A stretch of DNA of 64,000 bases, from positions 3,915-67,914 of the forward strand of contig CANFBW010000010.1 in the NCBI GenBank assembly GCA_947444925.1. Direction: 5' to 3'. The DNA is from Flavobacteriales bacterium (GTDB lineage Bacteria; Bacteroidota; Bacteroidia; Flavobacteriales_C; GCA-002722245). Position numbers and translations under genes: made by a program. Below the pieces are notes generated by a model. That model searched no databases. It had not been told where the DNA came from and saw only the letters and a program-made list of their open reading frames with translations. Shown piece after piece: positions 2,745 to 62,509 of the stretch; the first letter of the stretch is position 1; the number at the start of each line of letters is the position of its first letter.

Positions 2745-3296
2745 TTGTCAAAAGAGACCATCATAATAGGCATCGACCCAGGTACCACTGTCATGGGCTT
2801 TGGCGTGATTAAAGTTGCAAACAACAAGCTGACGCTGCTCGACATCGGTTCGGTGAAATTTTCAACATTGAAAAATCACGAGCAAAAACTAAAGGAGATT
2901 TACGAGGTGATGATCACCCTCATCAACAAACACCACCCCGACCACCTGGCGATTGAAGCGCAGTTTTTTGGCAAGAATGTGCAGTCGATGCTCAAACTCG
3001 GCCGCGCCCAAGGCGTTGCGATTGCTGCCGCACTGTCGCGCGAAATCCCATTTACAGAGTATGCGCCCAAGAAAATCAAAATGTCAATCACCGGCAGCGG
3101 CAATGCCTCAAAAGAGCAAGTGGCAAAAATGTTGCAAACACTACTGAATACAAAAGATCTTCCCGAGGTACTGGATGCAACAGATGGCCTGGCAGCTGCG
3201 GTATGCCACCATTTTCAAGGCGGCAACAAAAGCGAGGGCAAAAAATACAGCGGCTGGGATGCTTTTGTAAAGCAGAATCCTAAAAAAACAAAATGA
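2745..3296 (+). CDS. ruvC: Crossover junction endodeoxyribonuclease RuvC
   Basis: IIIGIDPGTTVMGFGVI...LAIEAQFFGKNVQSMLKLGRAQGVAIAAAL...ATDGLAAAVCH. I prefer the in-frame TTG at 2745 as the start because it gives 183 aa. The GTG at 2670 would overlap the divergent gene. Confidence 0.9.
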   Translation: MSKETIIIGIDPGTTVMGFGVIKVANNKLTLLDIGSVKFSTLKNHEQKLKEIYEVMITLINKHHPDHLAIEAQFFGKNVQSMLKLGRAQGVAIAAALSREIPFTEYAPKKIKMSITGSGNASKEQVAKMLQTLLNTKDLPEVLDATDGLAAAVCHHFQGGNKSEGKKYSGWDAFVKQNPKKTK

Positions 3297-3484
3297 TTAT
3301 CGCAATTGTACCAGTCCTATGACAGAAGTAGCGATAGATCCTTCGGAGTACCTCAGGAGGACAATCATTCTCGAAAAACCTATGTACAATCGTTCGCATT
3401 CATCTCCGTGCGCTTTAAGATTAACAGGAGAAACGAAGTTTCGCTCTTTGAAGGATCTATCGCCCTTAACATAAATCTACTGGC
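3293..3484. repeat. Structured repeat / candidate ncRNA, copy A (core hairpin 3333..3461)
   Basis: GATAGATCCTTC (3333-3344) pairs perfectly with GAAGGATCTATC (3450-3461). The segments GGAGTACCTCAGGAGGACA and AGATTAAnAGGAGAAACGAAGTnTCG are shared with the copies at 22441 and 62292. The flanks ATGATTAT..AATTGTACCAGT and AACATAAATnTACTG are shared with copy C. Confidence 0.7.
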
Positions 3485-3704
3485 GCCATTCAAGACAATC
3501 ATTAAAAAAAAGTAGTTTCCATCGTCCAGCAGCAGACTGCGCTTGCCTTTCGGCGGAGAGCAAGGAGATGACATAAAAAACTACTATTTCAATTCCCCAC
3601 CTTTACACTTCCCGCCGAAGCCCTCTCCTCGGAGAAGGAAAAAAAAACGCTTTACTTCGTCGAAAACATACAGATTGCTATCTTTACTCCTCAATTTTGA
3701 AACA

Positions 3705-4979: not shown

Positions 4980-6820
4980 TGTTGACCTACTTGCACCGCA
5001 ATATTGTTTTTCTGCTTTTCAGCGTTAGCTGCCTAACAGTAAGCCCTTCTTTCGGTCAAGACAATGGACAAATACAATTCAACTTAGGGAAACAATTTTA
5101 CGGCGAGGGCGAGTTTGACAAGTCCTCTGAAATTTTTGAAGAGCTCTATAAAAAATCAAAATCAGAAGAAGTTTACGAATATCTGCTGACCAGTTATGTG
5201 TCTGCAAAAATGTACAAGGCCGCGGAGAAACTGGTGGAGAAAAAAATAAAAGATTTTCCGAAAAGCACGCTTTACCCCATCGACCTTGGATTTGTGTATA
5301 CCGCAGCGGCAGACGAAAAAAAGGCAACTAAAAGTTTTGAAAAATCGTTGGCGTTATTGCCCGCCGACAATCAAGAAATTATTGTGTGTGCTGGTCGCTT
5401 CCTCAAAAGAAAGCAAGCCAACTGGGCCATTCAATGCTACTTGAAAGGGCGAAAACTGGTGCACAACGATTACCCTTTTTCATTTGAACTCGCTGATGTT
5501 TACCGTTCGCAAGACAACTATTCAGAAATGATCAACGAATATTTGTATGTTCTTGAATATGGCGAAGGCTACTTATCAGAAGTGCAAAATGCATTACTCA
5601 ACGCCATCGGAGAAGATCCTCAGGGCCGAAAGAAACAAGTACTGAAAGACAACCTACTCAAGAAAATTCAAGAGAATCCAAGCAACGATCTCTACCTCGA
5701 AATGCTAATTTGGGAGTTGATTCAAGAAAAAGAATTTTCGGCAGCACTCACCCAAACAAAAGCGATAGACAAGCGGAAGCGCGAGGATGGACAACGTTTG
5801 ATGCGCCTCTCTGAACTTTGTTTGAAAAACGAAGATTACGACAATGCCGCCAAAGCACTGAAATATGTCATCGACAAAGGCGAAAACAGCATGTATTACC
5901 GTCACGCCAAAATGAATTTATTGAAGGTGTTGAATCAAAAAATTACAACACGTCCCGACTACACCACACAAGATTTATCGGAATTGCAAAGCGCTTATGT
6001 TTCAGGGTTGAACGAACTCGGAAAAAACACTTTTACGCTCGAGATGATGCAAGACTATGCGCATTTACTGGCCTTCTTTTTGCACCAACCCGAAAAAGCA
6101 ATAGTCCTTTTAAAGGAAGCCATTGCTATGCCACGCGCCAGCGTTCAACAAATTGCGGATAGTAAATTGGAGCTGGGTGACATCTACCTGATATCCAACA
6201 AAATTTGGGATGCAAGTCTGCTCTATTCACAAGTAGAATTGGATTTCAAATACGATGTCATTGGACAGGATGCCAAATACAGAAATGCAAAAATATCTTA
6301 CTACAGTGGCGACTTCAAATGGGCCAAAGCACAACTCGATGTATTGAAAGCGGCCACCGATCGCTACATCGCCAACGACGCCATGTATTTGTCGATACTC
6401 ATCACCAGCAATACCTTGCTCGACACCATCACTACCCCTCTTGAAATGTTTGCAAGAGCCGATTTACTTGAATTTCAAAACCAAGATTCACTCAGCATGC
6501 TGACCTTGGATTCGCTTGAAAAAGAATTCAAGTCGCGCTACAATCTAATGGATGACGTGAGCTATTTACGCGCACAAATATATTTAAAAAAACACCTGTG
6601 GACACAAGCCGCAGAAGCGCTTCAAAAGACTTATGAATACAAAGATTTACTGGCTGACGACGCGCTGTTCAAACTCGCTGAACTTTATGAAAATGTGTTG
6701 AACGACAAAGTAAAAGCGCAAGCAAAATATGAAGAAATACTATTTAAATTTCCGGGCAGCATCTACGTTGAAGAAGCCCGCAAAAGATTCAGAAGGTTAC
6801 GAGGAGATAAAGAATTTTAA
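4976..6820 (+). CDS. Tetratricopeptide-repeat protein with an N-terminal signal peptide
   Basis: 614 aa with a hydrophobic N-terminus and repeated TPR-like A/Y/L-spaced helices. The start overlaps the serS stop (ATGA). Confidence 0.7.
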   Translation: MMLTYLHRNIVFLLFSVSCLTVSPSFGQDNGQIQFNLGKQFYGEGEFDKSSEIFEELYKKSKSEEVYEYLLTSYVSAKMYKAAEKLVEKKIKDFPKSTLYPIDLGFVYTAAADEKKATKSFEKSLALLPADNQEIIVCAGRFLKRKQANWAIQCYLKGRKLVHNDYPFSFELADVYRSQDNYSEMINEYLYVLEYGEGYLSEVQNALLNAIGEDPQGRKKQVLKDNLLKKIQENPSNDLYLEMLIWELIQEKEFSAALTQTKAIDKRKREDGQRLMRLSELCLKNEDYDNAAKALKYVIDKGENSMYYRHAKMNLLKVLNQKITTRPDYTTQDLSELQSAYVSGLNELGKNTFTLEMMQDYAHLLAFFLHQPEKAIVLLKEAIAMPRASVQQIADSKLELGDIYLISNKIWDASLLYSQVELDFKYDVIGQDAKYRNAKISYYSGDFKWAKAQLDVLKAATDRYIANDAMYLSILITSNTLLDTITTPLEMFARADLLEFQNQDSLSMLTLDSLEKEFKSRYNLMDDVSYLRAQIYLKKHLWTQAAEALQKTYEYKDLLADDALFKLAELYENVLNDKVKAQAKYEEILFKFPGSIYVEEARKRFRRLRGDKEF

Positions 6821-22372: not shown

Positions 22373-22440
22373 GTCTCTATTTTCGTCCCAAAATTATTTC
22401 GGATCGGCCGAAATGGCACTAATTCATTTAAGTTTAGGGC

Positions 22441-22760
22441 GATAGATCCTTCGGAGTACCTCAGAAAGACAAATGCGAACAAAGGTCCGTCATGGTTTTA
22501 CGATGTTCCATAATGGTTTAACCATGTTCCTTAAGGATTTTTTCAAATGCGAACAAAGGTCCGTCATGGTTTTACGATGTTGCATAATGGTTTAATCATG
22601 TTCCATAACGGCTTTTTCAAATGCGAACAAAGGTCCGTCATGGTTTTACGATGTTCCATAATGGTTTAACCATATTCCATAAAGGTTTTCGAGAATGGCT
22701 GTCTTCCTGAGAGTTGAGATTAAGAGGAGAAACGAAGTTTCGGTCTTTGAAGGATCTATC
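22441..22760. repeat. Structured repeat / candidate ncRNA, copy B, with its apical region expanded by a tandem insertion
   Basis: The closing stem is the same as in copies A and C: GATAGATCCTTC (22441-52) pairs with GAAGGATCTATC (22749-60). The motifs GGAGTACCTCAG and GAGATTAAGAGGAGAAACGAAGTTTCGGTC are also shared. The inner stem is AGAAAGACA / TGTCTTCCT. Confidence 0.7.
22471..22692. repeat. Tandem direct repeat of 3 x 74 bp, with two about-20-nt sub-repeats per unit
   Basis: Units start at 22471, 22545 and 22619, each beginning AAATGCGAACAAAGGTCCGTCATGGTTTTACGATGTT. The first 37 nt are identical in all three units. Within each unit ATGGTTTTACGATGTTCCAT and ATGGTTTAACCATGTTCCTT lie 21 nt apart. 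Confidence 0.9.
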
Positions 22761-22942
22761 ATCCTCTTCTGTAGCACTAATGATCTCATAGCAGACCAAC
22801 CAATCATTATTACAATTTTTGTTAATTGAAATCACTTGGGCAATATTGCGACCATGACAAAGTTTTGCAACAAGGAAAAGGCGTTGAAGCGTGGCACACT
22901 TTTTTTATACGACGTATGCCCGCCAAATAAAAAAACGGCAAA

Positions 22943-27226: not shown

Positions 27227-29035
27227 CTAGTGGCCGTCAGCTTCGCCTTCTTTCAAAGGAACAGACTGGGGAACAAAGTCAACGTCGTAACCAGGCTTGC
27301 TGTAATCGTAAGGCCAACGGTGCACTTCTGGTATTTTACCAGACCAGTTTCCGTGGATTCTTTCGATAGGTGCCGTCCACTCTAAGGTAGTCGACTGCCA
27401 AGGATTTTGATTTGACTTTCTTCCTTTAAAAATACTGTAGAAGAAGTTGAAGATGAAAACAAATTGTCCGATTGCTGCCATAATAGCGAACATTGTGATG
27501 ATCACGTTGATCGGTTGAACATCTTTAAACAATTCATATTCTTCGTTAGAGAAATATCTACGTGGAACACCTGCCAATCCTAAGAAGTGCATAGGAAAAA
27601 ACACGCCGTATACACCCACAATCGTCATCCAGAAGTGGAGGTAACCCATTTTAGGCAACATCATTTTACCGTACATTCTCGGGAACCAGTGGTACACACC
27701 AGCGAACATACCGAAGATAGCACCCGCACCCATTACGATGTGGAAGTGACCTACTACGAAGTATGTATCGTGAATATTGATGTCTAATGCAGAATCTCCC
27801 AAAATCAAACCAGTCAAACCACCAGAGATAAACAATGAAATCATACCTAAGGCAAACATCATTGCAGGAGTCAATCTTAAATTACCTTTCCAAATAGTAG
27901 CGAGGTAATTGAAAACTTTGATGGCAGAAGGAATCGCAATCAACAAAGTAGTAAAAGTAAATACCGTTCCTAAGAAAGGATTCATACCCGTCATAAACAT
28001 ATGGTGACCCCATACGATGAAAGACAAGAAAGCAATTGCAAGTACAGAAACAATCATCGCTCTGTAACCAAAAATTGGTTTTCTTGAATTCGTCGAAATA
28101 ACTTCAGAAATAATACCCAACGCTGGCAACAAGATGATGTACACCTCAGGGTGACCCAAGAACCAGAACAAGTGCTCAAACAACAATGGACTTCCACCAG
28201 TAGCCTCTAAAGGCACACCGCTGAAGAAGATATCAGACAAGTAAAAAGCAGTGCCAAAACTTCTGTCGAAAATCAACAACAAAGCGCAACTCAACAACAC
28301 TGGGAAGGAAAGTACACCTAAAACTGCTGTGATTAAGAAACACCAGATGGTTAAAGGCAAGCGTGTCATCGTCATACCTTTTGTTCTCAAGTTGAACACA
28401 GTAACGATGTAGTTCAAACTACCCAATAAAGAAGAAGCAATAAAGATGGCCATTGAAACCAACCATAAAGTCATACCCAAACCTGATCCAGGAATGGCTT
28501 TTTCAATAGCACTTAAAGGTGGGTAAACAGTCCAACCAGCTGATGCAGGACCCGTTTCAACGAAACAAGAAGCAATCATAATACAGCTCGATAGAAAGAA
28601 CAACCAGTAAGAAACCATGTTCAAAAATCCTGAAGCCATATCTCGCGCACCAATCTGATACGGAATCAAAAGATTGGAGAAAGTACCACTCAGTCCACCC
28701 GTCAAAACGAAGAAAACGATGATGGTACCATGAATGGTCACCAAAGCCAAATACATGTTGGGATCGAGGATGCCTTCTGGCGCCCATTTATCTCCCAAAA
28801 AGAAGTTAGAGAATGCGAATTTCTCTCCAGGCCATGCCAATTGCAAGCGGAAGATCAATGACATACCCATTCCAATTACCGCCATAACAATGGCAGTAAT
28901 CAAAAATTGCTTGGCAATCATTTTATGATCCTGGCTAAAGATATATTTTGAGATAAAAGTCTCGTGATGCGCATGGTGACCGTGGTCGTCATGTGCGTGG
29001 TGACCTTCATTGCCGTGATGTCCGTGATCTGACAT
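27227..29035 (-). CDS. ctaD: Cytochrome c oxidase subunit I (heme-copper oxidase, A-type)
   Basis: [22 protein letters not shown] and [15 protein letters not shown], with 12 or more TM helices. The N-terminus is His-rich ([25 protein letters not shown]). Confidence 0.93.
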
Positions 29036-29069
29036 TTTTTATCGTTTTACAGGTTTCTAGTTCAATTAA

Positions 29070-30266
29070 TTATTTTCCGGCGAACTCGTCACCGAAAGTT
29101 TTGTATGATGCTATTCTCGCGTCGTATTCTTTTTGTGACAATACCACAATTGGGAAGCGCATTTTATAGTGCGATGCACCGCATATCTTGTTGCACACCA
29201 ATTCAAACAACACAAACTTTTTACCTTCGCTGGCAGCAACTTCAACCATTTCAGTTGAAGTATATTTAGGTGTAAAAGTAAAGTATGTTTTTTGTCCTGG
29301 AACACAGTTCATTTGTGCACGGAAATGCGGGAAATACGCAGAGTGCAACACGTCTTTAGAGCGGAAAGTAAACTCAGCCATTCTGTCTTTGGCCAGATAC
29401 AATGTGTCGCGAACAACAACATCGTCATCAGCGCCTTTGTAGTAAGCGGCATCATTTTTATGCTCCAGAATAAACTTTTCCAATCTTCTTCCATTTGCTT
29501 TGAAGGCAGAAAGATTTTGCTCGGCATCAGCCAATTCATCTTCCTTAACCACCCAGCCGTTGTTCACGAGTGAGTCTAAATTTTTAACAACAATCTCCAA
29601 TGCGGCAATTTGCTTTTTAGTATCAACCAAACTAGAGTCCACTGAAGCGGCAGTCATAATACCCAAACCATTAGAACCAGTGATCACAGAGAAATTAACT
29701 TTGCCCAACTGCTTGTCTTTACCTGGGTAACGCACCGTCCATTTAAACTGCTCAGCAACCAATTCCAATTTAACTGAGTCTTTTGTAGACTCTTGATACA
29801 TCACATCACTCCATGTGGTTAAACCGTATGAAATTAAGCTTAACAAAACTATAGCAGGAATGATGGTCCAAGCCATTTCCAATTTATTGTTGTGCGGAAA
29901 CCAGTACGCTTTTTGACCTTTCTTTTGAAAATACTTATAGATAAAGGCAAACATAACTGCGTGCGTAATCAGGAAGGTAACGAGAATCAATCCCATAGTG
30001 ATGTCGAACAAGTTGTCGATTTCATCGCCGTGCACAGATGCAGAAGAAGGTAAAATATATTTACCCCATACCACCATTTGCACCGCGATGAGTGCAAAAA
30101 ACACAACGCCAAACACAACGTACAAAACGGCTTGCGTTTTAATTTCGGACGGCGTTACAAAATCCGCATCGTCACCATTAAGTTTTGTAGCCAACTCGTG
30201 CGAGCGCATAATTTTTGCGACTGCAACAACAACAAGTACTACCGTAAAGAGAATCAATAATGCCAT
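29070..30266 (-). CDS. ctaC: Cytochrome c oxidase subunit II
   Basis: Two N-terminal TM helices and a C-terminal cupredoxin domain carrying CuA-type ligands: DVLHSAYFPHF...CNKICGASHYKM. Confidence 0.85.
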   Translation of the reverse strand: MALLILFTVVLVVVAVAKIMRSHELATKLNGDDADFVTPSEIKTQAVLYVVFGVVFFALIAVQMVVWGKYILPSSASVHGDEIDNLFDITMGLILVTFLITHAVMFAFIYKYFQKKGQKAYWFPHNNKLEMAWTIIPAIVLLSLISYGLTTWSDVMYQESTKDSVKLELVAEQFKWTVRYPGKDKQLGKVNFSVITGSNGLGIMTAASVDSSLVDTKKQIAALEIVVKNLDSLVNNGWVVKEDELADAEQNLSAFKANGRRLEKFILEHKNDAAYYKGADDDVVVRDTLYLAKDRMAEFTFRSKDVLHSAYFPHFRAQMNCVPGQKTYFTFTPKYTSTEMVEVAASEGKKFVLFELVCNKICGASHYKMRFPIVVLSQKEYDARIASYKTFGDEFAGK

Positions 30267-30296
30267 TTCAAAATATTTTTAGCTCAAACATTCAAT

Positions 30297-31529
30297 TTAA
30301 TGATACAAATTTTTGCTTTCCTCTAAGTAAGGATGGTTTTTAACCAGTAGCGGTTTACTCGCCAAAGATCGTAAAACAACGAACAAAAACGCGCCAAGGA
30401 ACATCAAAAACATCCCAAACTCTACAAAGCCTATTTTTCCAGCTTCTTTCATTGTTGAAGGAATGATCAACATTTGAAGATCTACCCAGTGTGTGAAGAA
30501 GATGATGATACCAATTACCAACAACAAGCCTTTTCTCTTTTTCGCGTCAGCATCCATCAAGAACAACATCGGCAGTATAAAATTCACCAACATCATGGCA
30601 AAGAATTCAAATTTGTAGTCGCGCAAACGAGCGATATATGGTGCAACCTCTTCAGGAATGTCAGCATACCAAATCAACATGTACTGCGCGAACCAAAGAT
30701 AAGTCCACAAGAAACTCAAAGCAAACATCCATTTACCTAGATCATGAATGTGACCTTTCTTCACCCATGACATCAAGCCTTGAGATTGCAGGTAGATCAA
30801 TAAACAAATTGTCATGATGATGCCGCTGATCCAAATTCCAGCAAATACGTACCATCCAAATAAGGTAGAGAACCAGTGTACATCCAAAGACATAATTAAA
30901 TCCCAAGCCAATACAGAAGAACCGTAACCAAAAACCACTAAGAAACCAGCCGCCATGGCAATGTTTTTAAAGTGCAATTTAGTTCCACCTTCCACATCTT
31001 CTTGCATAGATCTCTTTTTGAACTTCATTGCGAAATAGATGAAAGCACCCATGAAACCAAAGAAACGCAGCAACAAGAAACCTCCGTCAGCACCGCTTCC
31101 AAAGTTAAAGTAGTGTGCTTTGTGAGAAATAATTTCGTCGAAATCAGCGTGGTTCACATCGTACACATTTGGGTCCATCCAGTGGTACAAATGGTGTTGG
31201 TGACCGAAGCCCGCCAAAAGCACCACCAAGATCACTGCAGCACCAATTGGCAACCAAGTAATTATTGCTTCCAAAATTCTTTTGTACACAATGGTGTATG
31301 CTGCTTCAGCAACATATTGCAAGGCGAGGAAGAACAAGGCGCCGAAAGAAACTCCGAAGAAGAAGAATCCGTTGCCCAATAAATCAGCCCACAATCTTTG
31401 ACCCAAACCAGTATGCTCTGCATATTGATAATTGCTGTCGAGTGTCAATCCCAATCCGAATAGAAGAAAACCTGATGCAATTAGAATCAGTGTAAATCTT
31501 TTAGCCTTGGATGAAAATGTATATTCCAT
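30297..31529 (-). CDS. actF: Alternative complex III subunit ActF (NrfD-like membrane subunit)
   Basis: 410-aa polytopic membrane protein in the last position of the act cluster. Assigned by position and topology. Confidence 0.7.
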   Translation of the reverse strand: MEYTFSSKAKRFTLILIASGFLLFGLGLTLDSNYQYAEHTGLGQRLWADLLGNGFFFFGVSFGALFFLALQYVAEAAYTIVYKRILEAIITWLPIGAAVILVVLLAGFGHQHHLYHWMDPNVYDVNHADFDEIISHKAHYFNFGSGADGGFLLLRFFGFMGAFIYFAMKFKKRSMQEDVEGGTKLHFKNIAMAAGFLVVFGYGSSVLAWDLIMSLDVHWFSTLFGWYVFAGIWISGIIMTICLLIYLQSQGLMSWVKKGHIHDLGKWMFALSFLWTYLWFAQYMLIWYADIPEEVAPYIARLRDYKFEFFAMMLVNFILPMLFLMDADAKKRKGLLLVIGIIIFFTHWVDLQMLIIPSTMKEAGKIGFVEFGMFLMFLGAFLFVVLRSLASKPLLVKNHPYLEESKNLYH

Positions 31530-31556
31530 TTTCTGTTTTTTTTAAGTCTTTAAATT

Positions 31557-32279
31557 CTATTTTTTTACTTGAAGTGAATCAGCAGGCGCGGCTACAGAAG
31601 ATGAATCTGATGCAGTAGGCTTGGCCAATTTTCCTTGTAAACTTTGTACGTAGTAAACAATTTTCCATCTTTCTTTTTGAGAAATCTGAGAAGCATGTGA
31701 ACCCATCATCCCTTTTCCGTAGTGCATGGTGAAAAATATTTGTCCTTCCGGAAGATCTTTCAAAGCAGCAGTGTAAGAAGGAGGTGCAGGAAACTTATCG
31801 TTTTGCACCATTTTACCGTCACCTTCGCCTTTAGCGCCGTGGCAGTGGTCACAAAATATCTCAAACAATTCTTTTCCTTGCGCCAAAACGGTATCAGAAA
31901 AATGCAATGGATTTTTCAACTCTCTTCCAGCTTTAGCATAGCCAGTAGTATCGTTGGCATATGGAAAAGGAAGAAAACCTTCAGCTACAGTACCCTTTGC
32001 AGGTAAGAAACTCGTGTTACCACCTTTCAACAAGTTGTAGATCGCTGCCATTTCCACTGCGTCTGTTTCGATGTTGTAGCCTTTACCTTCCAATCTTTCG
32101 TAGATGGCTGCTGAATCAAGATCTCCTTTTTTGGTGTAAGTTTCATAAGAAGGTGATCTGTACATGTCAGGCATGTACTCAACGCCAGGGCTGTTTGGAT
32201 CAGATGTACAGGCAAACATACCAGAAGCAAGAACTGCCACCAGTGATATTTTACCAATATATTTAAATATCCTATTCAT
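31557..32279 (-). CDS. actE: Alternative complex III subunit ActE (monoheme cytochrome c lipoprotein)
   Basis: Lipoprotein signal ...LASGMFAC and a single heme motif CDHCHG. Confidence 0.75.
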   Translation of the reverse strand: MNRIFKYIGKISLVAVLASGMFACTSDPNSPGVEYMPDMYRSPSYETYTKKGDLDSAAIYERLEGKGYNIETDAVEMAAIYNLLKGGNTSFLPAKGTVAEGFLPFPYANDTTGYAKAGRELKNPLHFSDTVLAQGKELFEIFCDHCHGAKGEGDGKMVQNDKFPAPPSYTAALKDLPEGQIFFTMHYGKGMMGSHASQISQKERWKIVYYVQSLQGKLAKPTASDSSSVAAPADSLQVKK

Positions 32280-32294
32280 AATATTCTCTTCTTT

Positions 32295-32816
32295 TTAAGC
32301 CGCTTTTTTATTTATTTCAATGGCACCCGTTTCTTTCAACAAGGCAATCAATTCTGCTTCTTTCGATTCTTCCACATGAATCTCCATTACAAATTTATCA
32401 TCTGTTGTTCTAGGATCAGGATTTTTAGCCTTCATCCCTGGAAGTGTTTTGTTTCTCAGGAAGTAAGTAATCGCCATACCATGCGCTGTGCAAAATACAG
32501 TGAACTCAAATGTAATTGGAATGAAAGCTGGCAAGTTTTGCAACAATGAGAAATTTGGTTTACCACCAATGTTCATCGGCCAGTCAACAATCATGAAGTA
32601 GCGCATACCAATTAAGGCTAGTGACATTCCTGTCAATCCGTAGATGAAAGCACAAATCGCCAAACGTGTTTTTCTAACACCAATAACGTCGTCTATTCCA
32701 TGAACAGGAAAAGGAGAAAACACATCTGTGACATGTATCCCTTTAGACACCACCTTCTTTGCTCCGTCAAGGAGAACGTGGTCATCATCGTACATTGCGT
32801 AAATTACTGTGCTCAT
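32295..32816 (-). CDS. actD: Alternative complex III subunit ActD (DUF3341)
   Basis: 173 aa with two central TM helices, positioned between actC and actE. Confidence 0.7.
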   Translation of the reverse strand: MSTVIYAMYDDDHVLLDGAKKVVSKGIHVTDVFSPFPVHGIDDVIGVRKTRLAICAFIYGLTGMSLALIGMRYFMIVDWPMNIGGKPNFSLLQNLPAFIPITFEFTVFCTAHGMAITYFLRNKTLPGMKAKNPDPRTTDDKFVMEIHVEESKEAELIALLKETGAIEINKKAA

Positions 32817-32856
32817 TTCCTTTGTATTATTTCGCTATTCTACTTAATTTCTATTA

Positions 32857-34281
32857 TTAATGTCCATTTTTTGAACCATTGCCATTGACGTCAATGTGCT
32901 CACCTGCTTGCAATTGTTTCAACTGCGATTCGCCAGTAGTTCTCAAAATAGTTTTCACCTCATTCAAAGCCAATACCGGGAATACTCTGCTGTACAACAA
33001 GAACAACACGAAGAAAATACCGATAGTACCCAAGAACAAACCTATGTCGACAAATGTAGGGTGAAACAAATTCCATGAAGAAGGAACATAGTCACGGTGA
33101 ATTGAAGTCACGATGATTACAAAACGCTCGAACCACATACCAATGTTTACAACGATAGACATAAAGAAAGTCAACACAATGTTTCTTCTCCATTTCTTCA
33201 CCCACATCAACTGCGGAGAAACAACGTTACACGTCATCATTAAAGCGTATGACCACCAGTACCAACCTGTAGCACGGTTCATGAAAGCATAACCTTCATA
33301 TTCCACACCAGAGTACCAAGAGATAAACAACTCCGACAAGTAAGCAACACCTACCATTGAACCTGTTAACATAATGATGATGTTCATGTACTCAATGTGC
33401 TTGATGGTTACGTAAGCTTCGAGGTGCAATACTTTACGCATTACAATCATCAACGTACATACCATAGCAAAACCAGAGAATACTGCACCCGCCACAAAAT
33501 AAGGAGGAAAGATAGTAGTATGCCATCCCGGAATTACCGAAGTGGCAAAGTCCATAGATACAATAGAGTGCACAGAGAATACCAACGGAGTTGCCAAACC
33601 GGCCAAAACCAAGGATACTTCTTCAAAACGATTCCAGTGCTTAGCCGAACCTGACCAACCAAAACTCAAAATGCTGTACACTTTTTTAGAAAGTGGTTTC
33701 ACTGCTCTGTCACGGATGGTAGCGAAATCGGGAATCAAACCGATGTACCAGAACACCAAGGAAACAGAGAAGTAAGTAGAGATTGCAAAAACGTCCCACA
33801 ACAAAGGAGAGTTAAAGTTCACCCAAAGAGATCCAAATTGATTAGGCAAAGGCAATACCCAGTAAGCCAACCAAATTCTACCCATGTGCAATAAAGGAAA
33901 GAGCGCTGCCATGATAACGGCGAAGATCGTCATCGCTTCCGCAGAGCGGTTGATGGCCATTCTCCAACGTTGACGGAACAACAACAATACGGCAGAAATC
34001 AAAGTACCAGCGTGACCAATACCAACCCACCATACGAAGTTAGTGATGTCCCAAGCCCAGTCAACAGTTTTGTTCAAACCCCAAACACCAATACCTACAC
34101 CAACGGTGTAGCAAATGCAGCCCAGTCCCCACAATGCCAACAAGGTGGCAAGTGAAAACATCATGTACCACATTTTGTTTGCTTTTCCTTCTACAGGGCG
34201 GCAAACATCCTCAGTGATCTCGTGGTAAGTTTTCTTACCAAGAATTAAAGGCTCTCTAATTTGCGATTCTACGTGATGCAT
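32857..34281 (-). CDS. actC: Alternative complex III subunit ActC (NrfD/PsrC-like quinol-interacting membrane subunit)
   Basis: 474-aa polytopic membrane protein that follows the Fe-S/molybdopterin-like subunit. Confidence 0.8.
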   Translation of the reverse strand: MHHVESQIREPLILGKKTYHEITEDVCRPVEGKANKMWYMMFSLATLLALWGLGCICYTVGVGIGVWGLNKTVDWAWDITNFVWWVGIGHAGTLISAVLLLFRQRWRMAINRSAEAMTIFAVIMAALFPLLHMGRIWLAYWVLPLPNQFGSLWVNFNSPLLWDVFAISTYFSVSLVFWYIGLIPDFATIRDRAVKPLSKKVYSILSFGWSGSAKHWNRFEEVSLVLAGLATPLVFSVHSIVSMDFATSVIPGWHTTIFPPYFVAGAVFSGFAMVCTLMIVMRKVLHLEAYVTIKHIEYMNIIIMLTGSMVGVAYLSELFISWYSGVEYEGYAFMNRATGWYWWSYALMMTCNVVSPQLMWVKKWRRNIVLTFFMSIVVNIGMWFERFVIIVTSIHRDYVPSSWNLFHPTFVDIGLFLGTIGIFFVLFLLYSRVFPVLALNEVKTILRTTGESQLKQLQAGEHIDVNGNGSKNGH

Positions 34282-34300
34282 TACTCAGTATTTTAAAATA

Positions 34301-37300
34301 TTAAGCTTCTTTTGATAAATTTCTCACTTTCGTTTGGTAATAAACATTCGGTTTAACACCAACCTCATCGAGCATTGTATATGATCTTTGGTCTTTCGAC
34401 GCTTTGTGTACGTATGAATTCACGTCGTTCAAGTCACCAAACTGGATAGCGTGTGTAGGACAAGCCTCAGCACAAGCTGTTTCAATGGAACCGTCTTCTA
34501 CAGCGTGACCTGCTTTTTTCGCTTCCAATTTACCATGTTGAATTCTTTGAACACACATTGAACATTTTTCAATAACACCTCTAGATCTAACAACAACATC
34601 AGGGTTCAACACCATACGACCAAGGTCATCGTGTGCAGGATTGATTTTATTGAAGTCAGGATATTGTGTCAAATTCAATGAATCATATTGGAACCAGTTG
34701 AATCTTCTTACTTTGAACGGACAGTTGTTCGCGCAATATCTGGTACCGATACATCTATTGTATGCCATTTGGTTCAAGCCTTCCTGAGAGTGCGTAGTAG
34801 CAGCAACCGGACAAACCGTTTCGCACGGTGCGTGGTTACAATGCTGACACATTACCGGTTGGTAAACCACTTGCAATTCGTCGTCGCCATCAGGTACCTC
34901 CGCTTCGTGGTATTCAGCAATAGAGTTCAATTGATCCAACTCTCTTACCTTCTCGCCTTCCAAAGTAGAAGAGAAATAACGGTCGATTCTGATCCAATGC
35001 ATTTCACGACTTCTTCTCACTTCGTCTTTTCCAACAACAGGAACGTTGTTTTCACTTTGACAAGCCGTAGCACAAGCACCGCAACCGATACAAGTGTTCA
35101 AGTCGATCACCATACCCCAACGGTGTCCAAGATCGATGCCTTGATCTTCCCAAAGGTCGAGTTCAGCAGGCGTTCTTTTTTTGCCGTAAGTATCAGTCAA
35201 CATTTCTTGTTCATTGTAAGCACCAGCCGCTTTTGAATCTTTGGTGCTTTTAAAAATATCTAAGGTGGTTTCATTGACAATTTTTCTACCCATCATCGTG
35301 TGATGTGTTTGGGTAGTTGCCAACGGATAAGTATTGTCTGTTTTTGAAATCTCTACGCTGTTGCTGTACAAGAAATCTTTAGAGATCAAAGGGAAAGCAT
35401 TCACACCAATCAAAGCGCCTTCTTTGTACAAACCACCTTGCCACTCTTCTCTCGCAATACCTGAAGTGATTGATCTTCCGTAACCCAAAGCAACGCTCAC
35501 CGTTTGTCTGGCTTGACCAGGCAAAGGATAAACTGGCACTTCTAATTCAACGCCGTTTGCTTTAATTTTGATCACTTTAGCAGGATATTTCTCGCCCAAG
35601 TACAATTCGTTGTGGCCTTCATATCCTTTTCCAGTGATGCCAAACAATTCTTTAACATCTTCTGGGTGCATCGTTGCATAATTGTCCCAGGTTACTTTTG
35701 TGATTGGATCCGGTAATTCTTGCAACCATGGGTTTAAGGCGTGACGGCCGTCTCCCATACCTGCTTTAACGTACAATTCGACTTCCCAACCAGCGCTCGC
35801 CTTAAATTTAGCAGCTACTTCGTTGAAATTAATATCTGCGCTCGTCACTGTTGCAGCGGCCACCAAGGCCATATCTACTGCTTCCGTTTTCGGAGCTTCT
35901 ACTTTTTTAGTTTCTGTTGTTTCAACAATTGCAGGTGCTGCGTGTCCAACATAAACACCGTTTTGAACAGCTTCGTGCCAAGCAACATTACCTGAAACTA
36001 AACCTGCACTTGACCAATGTTCTTGCACATAGTCACCAAAAGCTGTGCTGTTACCAGACCAAGCCAAGATGCTTTCTTGCCATTGACGCGTATTGAACAA
36101 TTTGTTGATCGCAGGTTGTGCAATATTGTAAATTCCTTTAGCAGGATTGAAGTCATTCCATGATTCGAGGTAGTGGTTGTCAGGACAGATGTAATCACAT
36201 TCCGCACCAGTTTCATCCAATCTATCTCCCAAATAAATTTTCACTTTTACTTTAGCCAAAGCAGATTTGAAATCTCCTTTATCTCCAATTTTTGCCGGAG
36301 AAGAATACACTGGATTCACTCCAGCGATCAAAATTGCTCCAACTGAACCAGCAGCCATTTGATTCACCAATACAGCAAAATCAGTGTCGTTTCCTTTTCT
36401 GATGTGTAAGCCTGATTCAACATCTACTGTATTTCCGTAGTTGCCCAATTGTTTGTTGATGGCATTTACCAACAATTGAACGTTGCTGTCATTGCTTCCT
36501 GAAACCACCAATCCGTGACCGGCAGCAGCTTTCAATTCCGCAGCAGCTTTGTTTAATTTTTTCTTAGCGCCTTCTGTCAAGCCAGCCGGAACAGTAACAT
36601 TTCCACCAACAGCTTTCAACAAGTAAGCAGCAGCGATACCGTTTTCAGATGGTTTAAGTGTTGCTCTAACATCAGCGTTAGAACCTGTCAATGATAATTT
36701 TGTTTCGAACTGGAAGTGTTTCGACATCCATTCGCCTTCTGGTTTTCTTGACAATGCGTATTGTGCAGCGTATTGGTTAGAGTTCAACCAACCACCCAAG
36801 AAATCAGCGCCAATGCTTACAATTACTTTTGATTTATCAAAACGGTAAGAAGGAATCACTGCTTTGCCAAACATCATTTTGTTGGCTTTCAAAATCCCTG
36901 AGCTTGAAATAGAATCGTAAACAACGTGCTCCACTCCTGGGAATTTCGCAGCCAAGTCAGCGATTGCTTTTTCAGAAGATGGACTCATCAATGTTCCCGT
37001 CAGAACAACAATTTTTCCACCTGAAGCAGAAACATTTGACAAGTGACCAGTGATCTCTTTGTCAACAGTACTCCACTCTAATCCTTTTTGCCAAGATGCA
37101 GCCGCCTTTTTAGCTGGCGCTTTACCTCTTTTGGCATCGTATAATTCCAACACAGATGCGTTTACTCTAGCATTAAGAGCACCACCTGTAATTGCTGAAT
37201 GTTTGTTTCCCTTGATGAAAATAGGACGACCTTCTCTTGTTTTTACAACAACACCGGCGAAATCAAATCCATCAAAATAAGTAGAAGCATAAAAGTTCGC

Positions 37301-37570
37301 TACACCAGGTGTAATCTCTTCAGGCTTGTTCAAATAAGGAATTGCTTTAGTCACTGGCGTTTCGCAAGCTGCCAATGAAGCGGCAGTAATACTAAAACCA
37401 AGGTATTTCAAGAAATCCCTTCTGTGTGTTTTGCTTTCGGTAGCTTCGCTATCGCTCAAAAATTGGTCTACCGGAACATGCTCTGCAAATTCCTTTTGGC
37501 TTTGCTCCACAAATTGAGGCGCGGCCGTTAGCTCTTCCAGCCCTTTCCAGTATTTTTTAGTTTCAGTCAT
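34301..37570 (-). CDS. actB: Alternative complex III subunit ActB (molybdopterin-oxidoreductase-like domain plus 4Fe-4S ferredoxin domain)
   Basis: Tat signal HRRDFLKYLGFSITAASLAAC. The C-terminal part carries cysteine clusters CIGCGACATACQSENN, CQHCNHAPCETVCP, CIGTRYCANNCP and CSMCVQRI...CAEACP. Confidence 0.88.
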   Translation of the reverse strand: MTETKKYWKGLEELTAAPQFVEQSQKEFAEHVPVDQFLSDSEATESKTHRRDFLKYLGFSITAASLAACETPVTKAIPYLNKPEEITPGVANFYASTYFDGFDFAGVVVKTREGRPIFIKGNKHSAITGGALNARVNASVLELYDAKRGKAPAKKAAASWQKGLEWSTVDKEITGHLSNVSASGGKIVVLTGTLMSPSSEKAIADLAAKFPGVEHVVYDSISSSGILKANKMMFGKAVIPSYRFDKSKVIVSIGADFLGGWLNSNQYAAQYALSRKPEGEWMSKHFQFETKLSLTGSNADVRATLKPSENGIAAAYLLKAVGGNVTVPAGLTEGAKKKLNKAAAELKAAAGHGLVVSGSNDSNVQLLVNAINKQLGNYGNTVDVESGLHIRKGNDTDFAVLVNQMAAGSVGAILIAGVNPVYSSPAKIGDKGDFKSALAKVKVKIYLGDRLDETGAECDYICPDNHYLESWNDFNPAKGIYNIAQPAINKLFNTRQWQESILAWSGNSTAFGDYVQEHWSSAGLVSGNVAWHEAVQNGVYVGHAAPAIVETTETKKVEAPKTEAVDMALVAAATVTSADINFNEVAAKFKASAGWEVELYVKAGMGDGRHALNPWLQELPDPITKVTWDNYATMHPEDVKELFGITGKGYEGHNELYLGEKYPAKVIKIKANGVELEVPVYPLPGQARQTVSVALGYGRSITSGIAREEWQGGLYKEGALIGVNAFPLISKDFLYSNSVEISKTDNTYPLATTQTHHTMMGRKIVNETTLDIFKSTKDSKAAGAYNEQEMLTDTYGKKRTPAELDLWEDQGIDLGHRWGMVIDLNTCIGCGACATACQSENNVPVVGKDEVRRSREMHWIRIDRYFSSTLEGEKVRELDQLNSIAEYHEAEVPDGDDELQVVYQPVMCQHCNHAPCETVCPVAATTHSQEGLNQMAYNRCIGTRYCANNCPFKVRRFNWFQYDSLNLTQYPDFNKINPAHDDLGRMVLNPDVVVRSRGVIEKCSMCVQRIQHGKLEAKKAGHAVEDGSIETACAEACPTHAIQFGDLNDVNSYVHKASKDQRSYTMLDEVGVKPNVYYQTKVRNLSKEA

Positions 37571-37611
37571 CGTTGTTAAACTATATAAGAGAACCTATTT
37601 TCTTAATATTA

Positions 37612-38925
37612 TTAATAGTGACATTTTGCACATTCTAACCCACCTATCTTGTCAACAGTGAACTTAAAGTCTTTCTTGTGCTTGAATTCTTTTTTAGCGT
37701 CTTCGTGTATTTTCAAGTAGTAATCGTTGCCTGCGAAATTAACTTCTGTTTCGCGGTGACAGTTTACACACCAGCCCATCGTCAATTCAGAGAACTGCTT
37801 AACTTCAGCCATTTTCTCCACTTCGCCGTGACATTTTTGACAAGCCACTTTACCTACCTCAACGTGTTGTGAGTGGTTGAAGTAAACAAAGTCAGGAAGG
37901 TTGTGCACTTTCACCCATTCAATGGCAGTGTCAGTTCTCATTTTTCCATCAGGCGTAGTGTACTTCATTGAATCTGGATTCCAGCCAATGTAAGCATACA
38001 ACTTATTGATTTCTGTTTTACCGCTTCTGCTGCCTTCTTGAACTGCTTTGTGACAGTTCATACAAACGTTTGCAGATGGAATACCTGAAGTTTTACTTAT
38101 ACGTGCTGAAGAGTGACAATATTTGCAGTCAATTTCATTTTTACCAGCGTGCAAATCGTGAGGAAAAGCAATCGGTTGTTTTGGCGCGTAGTCTTGGTAA
38201 ACACCAATTCCTAAAGCTGCGTCCCAACCAATTTTCGCCAAAGTCAACACCACAATTAAACCAATGATGCTGCTTAATTTTTTGTGCGATTTCATCCACG
38301 TGCCTATTGCTGACCAAACTGAAGAAGATTCTTCAATTTCAGCACCTTGCTTTTGATTGATCACGTTCTTCATAGAACGATTCACACCAGAGAAAATCAC
38401 AATGATTAAAGTAGCAATGCCAATCACAATTAAGATCATCCACAAATCACTGTCGCCATCGTCTTCCGACGCAACTCCTTCAGTTGTTCCAGCTGCAGGA
38501 GCGCCTGGCTCAGCAACTTTAGGAGCAGGACCAGCATGCAAAAACGCAACCAAGTCAGTCAACTGCGCATCAGATAAAAATCCGAATGCATTCATTGCCA
38601 AACCTGCATTTGCGTTGTATACTTGGTTACCGTAAGCGTCACCGCTTGCTCTTACTTTCGCGTTGTCTTTGATCCACGCCTTCAACCATCCATCTACGTC
38701 ACCGTAGCTTCCTGGCTGCACTCTGTCCACCACCCCTTGTAAGGCTGGACCAGACACTTTTTTGTCCCACGCGTGACATGCGCCACAATTCGCTTTAAAG
38801 ATTTTTTCTCCTGCTTTGGCATCTTGCGAAAAGCCTGTTGACACAAAAAATAGTGTGCACACCAGTAAAATAAGGAGGGAAGAGATAGATGAGATTTGTC
38901 TCATTGTTCTTTTATATAAGTTCAT
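37612..38925 (-). CDS. actA: Alternative complex III subunit ActA (multiheme cytochrome c) with an extra N-terminal class-I-like cytochrome c module
   Basis: Six CXXCH motifs: CGACH (N-terminal module), then CKYCH, CMNCH, CQKCH, CVNCH and CAKCH. An Ala/Pro-rich linker and a TM helix separate the two parts. Confidence 0.85.
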   Translation of the reverse strand: MNLYKRTMRQISSISSLLILLVCTLFFVSTGFSQDAKAGEKIFKANCGACHAWDKKVSGPALQGVVDRVQPGSYGDVDGWLKAWIKDNAKVRASGDAYGNQVYNANAGLAMNAFGFLSDAQLTDLVAFLHAGPAPKVAEPGAPAAGTTEGVASEDDGDSDLWMILIVIGIATLIIVIFSGVNRSMKNVINQKQGAEIEESSSVWSAIGTWMKSHKKLSSIIGLIVVLTLAKIGWDAALGIGVYQDYAPKQPIAFPHDLHAGKNEIDCKYCHSSARISKTSGIPSANVCMNCHKAVQEGSRSGKTEINKLYAYIGWNPDSMKYTTPDGKMRTDTAIEWVKVHNLPDFVYFNHSQHVEVGKVACQKCHGEVEKMAEVKQFSELTMGWCVNCHRETEVNFAGNDYYLKIHEDAKKEFKHKKDFKFTVDKIGGLECAKCHY

Positions 38926-38969
38926 TGATCTGATGACCTATTTAAATTCAAGCCATTTTTAGCTTGCGA

Positions 38970-38977
38970 CAAATTTA
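38970..38977 (-). promoter_or_regulatory. Candidate -7 box (TAAATTTG on the minus strand) for the act-cta operon
   Basis: Exact TAnnTTTG match about 45 nt upstream of the actA ATG, in an AT-rich divergent intergenic region. Confidence 0.35.
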
Positions 38978-39275
38978 TAATAATCCTCATTTTTAGCATC
39001 GCCTTTGTCATGGAAAAGTCTGCTCAACATCTAATTTAAATTGATTCTAAATAAGGTAATTCCATTACGTTCATTTTAAATAATTAAAAATCAATACACT
39101 CCATTCAAAATCGCGAATAATGTTTCCATTTTTAAAACATAAATTTGTTAATATTATTTTAAAAACAAGCACTTTGAAAGAGTGTGAAAATAAATCGAAA
39201 AAACCTTTGGCTCAATTGTAGTTGGCTGTTTTTAAACTCGTTATTTATTGTAATTTTGAAAAAAAATTAATTATC

Positions 39276-39716
39276 ATGCGCATCCTCATTTTTCTAATTT
39301 GTTTCATTAGTGCCAACATTGCAAATGCTCAAGATGCTGAAGCATCAAAAGACAACAAGGGGGGAGATGTTCTTGTTTATGGCGACGATCAAGTCAATGA
39401 ATTGCTCAAGCAACATGTAGCCATCAACAAAAAAAAGTGCCCGCATTTGGTGAAGGGCTACCGTGTTCAAATATACTCTTCAGCTGGAAATGGAAGTCGA
39501 GAAAACGCAACGCGCGATCAAATAAGATTTCTAGCAAATTACTCTAGCGTTAACGCGTATAGTATGTACGAGCAACCGAACTGGAAAGTGAGAGTAGGCG
39601 ATTGTCGTTCGCGTTTTGAAGCCGAAAAACTTAAAAAAGAAATTCAGGTAAACTTTCCAAACTGTTTTGTAGTAGTCGATTTTATTGACACCGCATATTT
39701 AGACAACTGCAAATAA
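39276..39716 (+). CDS. SPOR-domain protein, secreted
   Basis: Signal peptide MRILIFLICFISANIANAQ. The C-terminal SPOR-like domain reads YRVQIYSS......A.......NAYSMYEQPNWKVRVGDCRSRFEAEKLKKEI. I prefer the ATG at 39276 as the start. Confidence 0.7.
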   Translation: MRILIFLICFISANIANAQDAEASKDNKGGDVLVYGDDQVNELLKQHVAINKKKCPHLVKGYRVQIYSSAGNGSRENATRDQIRFLANYSSVNAYSMYEQPNWKVRVGDCRSRFEAEKLKKEIQVNFPNCFVVVDFIDTAYLDNCK

Positions 39717-39924
39717 TTTCGTTGACCTCTTTCACTTGGCAAGTTTTATATACCGTATCACCAACAACAACAGCATTCATTTTCGGTTATTCGTTTACTG
39801 CCAAACAACTTTTTAAAAGTTAATAGTGCGAACACACTATTTTCCGACAGCCAAAAGTGCGGTGAAACAATGAAGCAATCAATAACTAAAGCGTAAATCC
39901 CATTCAGCTCCGAAGGAAGGCAAC

Positions 39925-39960
39925 AAAAAAGGGCTGAGTTATAAAACTCAGCCCTTTAAT
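39925..39960 (-). terminator. Hairpin terminator after infB, possibly bidirectional
   Basis: GGGCTGAGTT (39931-40) pairs with AACTCAGCCC (39945-54) around a 4-nt loop. An A-run lies on one side (a T-run on the minus strand) and TTTAATTT on the other. Confidence 0.75.
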
Positions 39961-39978
39961 TTATTGTACATATAAAAA

Positions 39979-62240: not shown

Positions 62241-62250
62241 TTTTCAAAAT

Positions 62251-62445
62251 ATGATTATTCGTAATTGTACCAGTACTGAAACCGCAGTGACGATATATCC
62301 TTCGGAGTACCTCAGGAGGACAACCTTTCGCGAAAAAACTTTGTAGAAAATCGTTCGTTTCTGTCCTCCTGAAATTTGAGATTAAGAGGAGAAACGAAGT
62401 GTCGGTCTTTGAAGGATCTATCGCTCTAAACATAAATTTACTGAT
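62251..62445. repeat. Structured repeat / candidate ncRNA, copy C (core hairpin 62292..62422)
   Basis: GATATATCCTTC pairs with GAAGGATCTATC at 11 of 12 positions. The inner stem AGGAGGACA / TGTCCTCCT is perfect. Both flanks are shared with copy A. The element lies 11 nt upstream of the DUF393 operon ATG. Confidence 0.7.
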
Positions 62446-62509
62446 ACTATTCTGCACAATAATTTTTCAAAACTTTCAATTTTTATTGAAACATATATGT
62501 AAAAAAATA

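Follow-up and report, generated by a model that had tools for sequence, protein, structure and literature searches.

Within the 64,000-nt contig stretch analysed here, from a Flavobacteriales bacterium (the window), a segment abutting the ruvC stop codon recurs at two distant places and folds into a long hairpin, raising the question whether it represents a new structured RNA or a piece of mobile DNA. The evidence collected below makes it very probable that the element is a MITE, about 212 bp long, which combines IS1595-type ends with a REP-like hairpin core. The family is previously undescribed but is ordinary mobile DNA, and its interpretation as a new RNA gene is not favoured; the element should be annotated accordingly, and not followed as a new RNA class.

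Copies of the element in the window

The three copies recognized in the earlier note, all on the plus strand, were recovered both by repeat finding and by mismatch-tolerant searches. Copy A (3293-3502) is 210 bp long and was detected by nhmmer with E = 2.8e-56; copy C (62251-62463) is 213 bp long (E = 1.8e-58); copy B (about 22390-22807, outer ends approximate) is old and degenerate, and gave two partial nhmmer matches. No fourth copy was detected in the window by nhmmer. With up to one mismatch allowed, three matches to the 20-mer GATCCTTCGGAGTACCTCAG and three to the 22-mer AGATTAAGAGGAGAAACGAAGT are found in the window, none being expected from 100 shuffles. The left ends originally assigned to copies A and C, 3293 and 62251, were exact, while the right ends, set at 3484 and 62445, have to be moved to 3502 and 62463.

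Copy A is bounded by a left terminal inverted repeat at 3293-3312 (plus strand, ATGATTATCGCAATTGTACC), which carries a 1-nt deletion relative to the consensus and matches the ends of IS1595-type elements, and by a right one at 3482-3502, reading ATGATTGTCTTGAATGGCGCC on the minus strand. Between them lie a short REP-like unit at 3331-3363 (minus strand, TGTCCTCCTGAGGTACTCCGAAGGATCTATCGC), made up of the 5' half of stem P1 (3331-3344), the apex GGAGTAC (3345-3351) and the 5' half of stem P2 with the tag (3352-3363), and a long REP-like unit at 3400-3463 (plus strand), in which a degenerate 3' half of P2 (3400-3411) and the 3' half of P1 (3450-3463) flank an apex of about 38 nt (approximately 3412-3449, plus strand), containing AGATTAACAGGAGAAAC and GAAAC-GAA-GTTTC. 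Copy C has terminal repeats at 62251-62271 and 62443-62463, P1 at 62290-62303/62411-62424, P2 at 62311-62322/62362-62373 and the 38-nt apex at 62373-62410. For copy B only the core is well delimited (22439-22762, plus strand), with P1 at 22439-22452/22749-22762, P2 at 22460-22471/22700-22711 and the 38-nt apex at 22711-22748 (plus strand); its terminal repeats are decayed and a target duplication is not recognisable. The spacer of copy B contains three 74-nt tandem repeats (22470-22691, plus strand).

The P1 stem of copy A, described as a perfect 12-bp helix, is real and extends to 14 bp, GCGATAGATCCTTC (3331-3344) pairing without mismatches with GAAGGATCTATCGC (3450-3463). P2 is intact in copy C, has one A.C mismatch in copy B and a degenerate 3' arm in copy A. 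The predicted folds of copies A and C have energies of -56.3 kcal/mol (z = -3.8) and -55.1 kcal/mol (z = -3.1), respectively. The open reading frames drawn over the copies fall in different frames, the indels between copies are not multiples of three, and the MITE has no coding capacity. The view of a non-coding, dispersed repeat family with a conserved long hairpin is retained.

Terminal repeats, target site duplications and an empty site

The limits of the repeated unit were defined on additional copies. When a pattern derived from the 38-nt apex was run against metagenomes, it matched 13 loci, which hold further copies of the MITE with paired inverted ends; they all come from a single sample and have a G+C content of about 40%. 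Their alignment showed that the conserved unit reaches beyond P1 on both sides. Full copies measure about 212 bp and have at both ends the 21-bp terminal inverted repeat ATGATTATCCGCAATTGTACC, so that the element reads ATGATTATCCGCAATTGTACC ... GGTACGATTGCGGACAATCAT; such ends occur as pairs about 212 bp apart, and the total length is constant (201-213 bp in 11 full copies). Along the element, the 21-bp terminal repeat is followed by the subterminal segment X of about 18 bp and by a first REP-like unit; a spacer of about 38 bp leads to the second unit, which is inverted, and after it come the subterminal segment Y and the other terminal repeat. The short outer pairing CCAGT/ACTGG, formerly considered as a possible closing stem, is present in the sequence, but is part of the 21-bp terminal inverted repeat. 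In all, at least 15 copies are found in unrelated contexts, with sharp and constant ends.

Copies are flanked by A/T-rich 8-bp target site duplications, the sequence of which differs at each copy. The flanking 8-mers are identical and flush (8/8) at four related loci (L240, L241, L250, L251), agree at 7 of 8 positions at two (L248, L252), and are identical with a 1-nt offset for L242 and for copy C of the window. By comparison, 8-mers paired at random with this spacing agree on average at 2.06 of 8 positions, and the probability of 7 or more is 0.00085. In copy C, the direct repeats (TTTTCAAAA) are located at 62241-62249 and 62464-62472, and a single T (62250) separates the left one from the element. 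The flanks of copy A, which agree at 6 of 8 positions, are low-complexity A-runs.

A direct view of one insertion is provided by locus L251, which is 96.9% identical to window positions 28320-40030 over 11.4 kb. A 212-bp MITE (L251:11400-11611) has TAGTTTTT on both sides, where the window has a single, uninterrupted TAATTTCG at 39714-39721, overlapping the TAA stop of the ORF 39222-39716. This is a clean pair of filled and empty orthologous sites, which contradicts the presence of pre-existing direct repeats at this position. Empty sites corresponding to copies A, B and C were not found in other assemblies, all being filled; in the assemblies retrieved, copies A and C are present without exception. 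What had been proposed as an unknown structured RNA is thus a MITE with target site duplications, as indicated by the inverted repeats, the 8-bp duplications, the filled and empty site and the IS1595-type ends. BLAST comparison of a full copy against a plasmid collection gave no match, and a literature search by sequence fragments returned primers only.

IS1595-family elements with the same ends

A degenerate pattern of the terminal repeat was used to scan viral contigs. All of the four matches obtained turned out to be ends of larger elements. Elements of 2.3-3.1 kb with MITE-type ends encode IS1595-family transposases and make 8-bp duplications. Three variants with the same ends were distinguished (L269; L270/L271; L272-L281). 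The first (L269:416-2720) is a 2305-bp insertion splitting the DNA-methylase gene of a phage. One of its genes codes for a 315-aa protein matching the Pfam domains DDE_Tnp_IS1595 (2.2e-18) and Zn_ribbon_IS1595, another is a Bro-N passenger, and the element is flanked by an 8-bp duplication with a 1-nt offset at each end. Its transposase has 3726 homologous proteins at E up to 1e-20. Two of them, 74-85% identical, were picked by protein similarity alone, solely for the length of their contigs, and sit in elements of 3115 bp (L272:5850-8964) and 2750 bp (L277-L280:5885-8634), bounded by ATGATTATCCGCAAT..TACC / ATGATTATCCGCAAT..TACCACCA ends. The 8-bp duplications associated with these elements are TCCAGTTT, ATATTTTT, TATTTTAA and TAATCTTA, and their passengers are KilA-N or SocA_Panacea proteins. 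Apart from the insertion in the methyltransferase gene, the IS1595-family elements were seen in chromosomal and phage-like contexts.

The MITE and the full-length elements have only about 22 nt of each end in common, and the MITE is therefore not a simple internal-deletion derivative. As previously noticed, the window contains no transposase: an IS1595 transposase with such ends was found neither there nor in about 113 kb of related metagenome loci, and searches with terminal-repeat patterns and nhmmer revealed no full-length element in the window and 13 related loci. For this reason we infer mobilisation in trans, and the source copy of the transposase element within this genome is a putative one. 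In the proposed mechanism, an IS1595-family DDE transposase, supplied in trans, would bind the ATGATTATCCGCAATTGTACC ends of the MITE, excise the element and insert it elsewhere, at A/T-rich targets of 8 bp that become duplicated; these targets often coincide with stop codons or fall in short gaps between genes.

Gene neighbourhood of the copies

According to gene calls, copy A starts at the last codon of ruvC, which encodes a protein of 167 aa (PF02075), and is followed downstream by serS. The ruvC stop TGA (3294-3296) sits within the left terminal repeat, and annotation should take into account that this stop codon is supplied by a transposon end. Copy B comes after a peroxiredoxin-like gene. 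Copy C is placed between two minus-strand genes, one MarR-like and one DCC1-like, which are 290 nt apart; it is downstream of the former and upstream of the latter, whose start codon (62219, minus strand) is about 30 bp away. The orientation of the copies relative to adjoining genes is mixed, A being sense to ruvC and C lying between two minus-strand genes. Given its position between the MarR-like and the downstream gene, the hairpin of copy C probably belongs to the transcript of this gene pair, and may affect neighbouring transcripts. Overall, the insertion sites suggest that the MITE prefers A/T-rich gene ends.

Insertions at stop codons were seen both at ruvC, whose stop is inside the MITE end, and at L251, where the target overlaps the stop of the upstream ORF. 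A Por_Secre_tail (T9SS) domain was also noticed in a neighbouring protein of the window, which suggests that the DNA comes from a member of the Bacteroidota.

Fold, covariation and promoter-like motif

The RNA hypothesis was evaluated on the enlarged set of copies. In agreement with the initial failure to assign the element to a known RNA family, no hit reached the gathering threshold when Rfam covariance models were searched on the window and 12 related loci, and E values up to 10 brought only chance matches. The string CUGA...GAAAC...GUC was considered as a possible hammerhead; this was dropped, since the core does not fit and Rfam gave no match.

Covariation was tested on a gapless alignment of the arms from 12 copies, in comparison with 500 shuffles. 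In this alignment 92.5% of the cells are paired, but covariation above background was not found: the score is 0.048 versus 0.045 in the shuffles, 122 of which reach 0.048. Across the 12 copies a double-sided change occurs at one pair only, and several pairs carry uncompensated mismatches, including five A.C mismatches at one P2 pair. The compensatory G-C to A-T change formerly described in P2 is real (pair 30/54), yet isolated, and the proposal of a structure under selection, backed by covariation, is not supported, since the score does not exceed that of the shuffles. The pairing hence reflects a conserved palindrome, and not a demonstrated selection on an RNA fold. Mismatches compatible with wobble pairing fit the minus strand in 21 cases and the plus strand in 11, the copies not being independent.

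The TTG-N16-TAnATTTA motif, formerly read as a hint of a promoter, lies in the terminal repeat and subterminal region, and is partly conserved among copies. About 6-7 of 11 copies have on their Y side the arrangement TTG...TAnnTTTA, which resembles the -33/-7 boxes of Bacteroidota. The terminal repeat reads ATGATTG on the Y side in 7/11 copies and ATGATTA on the X side in 9/11; the TTG of the promoter-like motif is created by the Y-side form.

A pattern built on the 3' block, GATTAANAGGAGAAACGAAG, was also tried and discarded, as its matches in over 120 viral contigs all correspond to an unrelated stop/RBS/start junction of enterobacterial prophages and are due to chance. The 20-mer GATTAAGAGGAGAAACGAAG (L001-L120) is this conserved junction, in a widespread enterobacterial prophage; such a chance identity would contaminate searches seeded on that block.

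The REP-like hairpin core and its relatives

In the core of the MITE (P1, GGAGTACCTC, P2) a REP-like hairpin unit, (C/T)GTC-AT-CCTGAGG-TACT-CCGAAGG-AT-CT, is present twice, in opposite orientations. The units of the window carry a TGTC tag. In one of them a 38-nt apex, which includes the conserved AGATTAAnAGGAGAAAC block pointed out in the earlier note, replaces GGTACTCC, the usual apex being 8 nt long.

Relatives of the unit were found outside the Flavobacteriales. The 18-mer TCCTTCGGAGTACCTCAG, corresponding to the 5' block, is present at more than 117 loci of a collection of species-representative genomes, mostly in Tepidisphaerales or Phycisphaerae MAGs, but also in Saccharibacteria, Paceibacterota, Flavobacteriales, Armatimonadota and Thermoguttaceae. 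In Tepidisphaerales and Phycisphaerae it is the arm of palindromes of 75-87 bp with a C/T-GTC tag, in which (C/T)GTCATCCTGAGGTACTCCGAAGGATCT and its reverse complement are separated by about 24 nt. Among 73 distinct Planctomycete dimers, GTC is preceded by C in 37 cases and by T in 35, and flanking direct repeats are absent. The window core has the arms of this Planctomycetota palindrome joined in the opposite way, with the tags inward ('tail-to-tail').

The 27-nt unit forms by itself a hairpin, with the stem ATCCT/AGGAT, a tandem G.A pair, GG/CC and the loop TACT; in its Planctomycete copies, double-sided compensation occurs at one pair (CG 49, GC 13, TA 6). Compensatory variants of the Planctomycete stem include ATGCT/AGCAT, ATTCT/AGAAT and ACCCT/AGGGT. 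MAGs of Tepidisphaerales and Phycisphaerae (L124-L239, e.g. L152:4126-6284) are dense with tag-outward GTCATCCTGAGGTACTCCGAAGGATCT dimers, and nearly exact copies of the 27-nt unit were observed in Planctomycetota, CPR bacteria and Bacteroidota. Partner arms with expanded apexes, such as GCAAAACGAAAGTGGAGC and CGCAGTGTACTCACGGAGT, were noticed at L123 (about 5900-6200, minus strand), L206, L214, L220 and L157, in CPR and Thermoguttaceae genomes; the expansion of the apex is therefore not unique to the family of the window.

The unit was compared with the CGTC-tagged REPs on the basis of the text of Di Nocera, De Gregorio and Rocco 2013 (BMC Genomics 14:522; PMC3733652). In that text, the CGTC tag is often changed to TGTC, and the repeats are found in Bacteroidetes and other phyla, with stems of 8-9 bp beginning with A-T and T-A, loops of 4-5 nt and a short tail. 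Dimers are described as mostly tag-outward, tag-inward dimers with variable spacers being a rare class, and the text reports no known dedicated transposase (PMC3733652). As judged by this text description, the unit fits the CGTC-tagged REP superfamily. Like CGTC REPs, the Planctomycete dimers are dispersed without duplications or terminal repeats of their own; every unit of the window and related loci is inside a MITE bounded by terminal repeats, free REPs not being seen there.

Internal variation and conservation of the arms

The arms of the MITE occur in a short form (apex GGAGTAC, plus strand) and a long form (38-nt apex). The long apex may be on either side relative to X and Y, the spacer may be in either orientation, and all four combinations occur; a copy with two short arms was also found (L246:1-160). 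A 642-bp variant with the same terminal repeats (L245:581-1222) has as its interior a tandem array of mixed short-apex and long-apex REP units, which keep one orientation throughout and recur at intervals of about 94 and 124 nt. In assemblies from the same population, the 74-nt repeat of copy B is present once (L256), twice (L253-L255) or three times (L259 and the window). Several contigs among L253-L260 break within this repeat. Its copy number and the presence or absence of individual MITE copies make the family usable as a source of strain-level markers.

Mean pairwise identity over 11 full copies is 0.90 and 0.91 for the REP arms, the long one being partly fixed by the search pattern and the short one free of such bias, 0.73-0.79 for the terminal repeats, 0.65 for the spacer and 0.61 for X/Y. 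Arms better conserved than ends are unusual for a purely selfish MITE, and this hints at an additional constraint or at gene conversion; it is the one feature that speaks for a functional role. The REP-like units, especially the 38-nt apex, could in principle constitute a selected functional module spread inside an IS1595-type MITE, a reading that we regard as unlikely; it would account for arms better conserved than the transposon ends, for the interchange of short and long apexes between arms and within arrays, and for the nearly identical 27-nt unit in Planctomycetota, CPR bacteria and Bacteroidota. Such a hairpin might bind a protein or take part in RNA processing, and the factor recognising it would be one that distant phyla have in common. 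If true, a selected module riding in a MITE would provide a route of spread for CGTC-type REPs, otherwise devoid of a known transposase. From the standpoint of mobile DNA, the interest of the family is that the best conserved part of a MITE is a REP-type hairpin dimer, found almost exactly as such in distant phyla.

Alternative explanations

It is improbable that the copies represent genes for small RNAs, or RNA elements acting in cis, driven by a minus-strand promoter of their own and with a fold maintained by selection. The high proportion of paired cells in the conserved hairpin, the double change of A-U to G-C in P2, the REP arms more conserved than the remaining element and the TTG...TAnnTTTA arrangement of the Y side are all features that such genes might have. 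The covariation is nevertheless within that of shuffled controls, and uncompensated mismatches are many, the 3' arm of P2 being disrupted in copy A. The copies are found in either orientation relative to their neighbours, Rfam has no match for them, and it is transposition, not an RNA gene, that accounts for their terminal repeats, their duplications and the polymorphic insertion. Still less credit can be given to a decaying segmental duplication, immobile and functionless. The degeneration of copy B and the broken P2 of copy A would suit such a remnant, but this explanation is already refuted by the filled and empty pair, together with flanking duplications that differ in sequence from copy to copy; the number of copies, their unrelated contexts and their sharp, constant ends are also against it.

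A REP or REPIN, moved as single-stranded DNA by a RAYT (IS200/IS605-like Y1) transposase, is a very improbable explanation too, although the core units fit the description of CGTC-tagged REPs and the dimer can be folded into one hairpin. Transposition of the IS200/IS605 and REPIN type is not known to duplicate the target or to depend on terminal inverted repeats, and the duplications largely refute this alternative: the element has 8-bp duplications and 21-bp terminal repeats in common with the DDE-type IS1595 elements, and the Planctomycete dimers, free of duplications, are in direct contrast with the family of the window. In addition, for CGTC REPs the text of PMC3733652 indicates no known dedicated transposase. 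Among these explanations we thus retain that of a MITE probably moved, to judge from its ends, by an IS1595-family transposase.

Comparison with known systems

Within this frame, the family resembles the MITEs of DDE insertion sequences (IS1595, Pfam DDE_Tnp_IS1595/ISXO2-like), being small, non-coding, present in dispersed copies and polymorphic for insertion. It is similar to the IS1595 elements themselves in the 21-bp terminal repeats, identical at 20-21 positions, and in the 8-bp duplication, but differs from them in that only the termini of about 22 nt are in common, the interior being a REP-like hairpin dimer.

With CGTC REPs, the units have in common the terminal (C/T)GTC tag and the arrangement in inverted dimers with spacers of 20-100 bp, as well as, in the Planctomycete copies, a stem of nine positions beginning with A-T and T-A, a 4-nt loop and a short tail. 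In the window units, the first stem pair is a C.T mismatch; the short unit has a 4-nt loop, while in the long one the apex measures 38 nt and not the 4-5 nt of a REP loop.

REPINs are linked to RAYT Y1 transposases. They are reportedly, after Bertels and Rainey 2011, doublets of REPs forming hairpins. The similarity of the core to REPINs and to the BIMEs of E. coli lies in the presence of two inverted REP units and a spacer, foldable as one long hairpin; the element of the window differs from REPINs by its DDE-type ends and 8-bp duplications.

A further comparison can be made with the Correia elements of Neisseria, ERIC and RUP, hairpin-forming MITEs which are co-transcribed with neighbouring genes, and for which effects on transcripts, through promoters and RNase III processing, are documented. 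Sequence similarity between these families and the MITE of the window is absent, but all of them are palindromic MITEs of about 100-200 bp, located by or between genes, which give rise to long RNA hairpins when transcribed.
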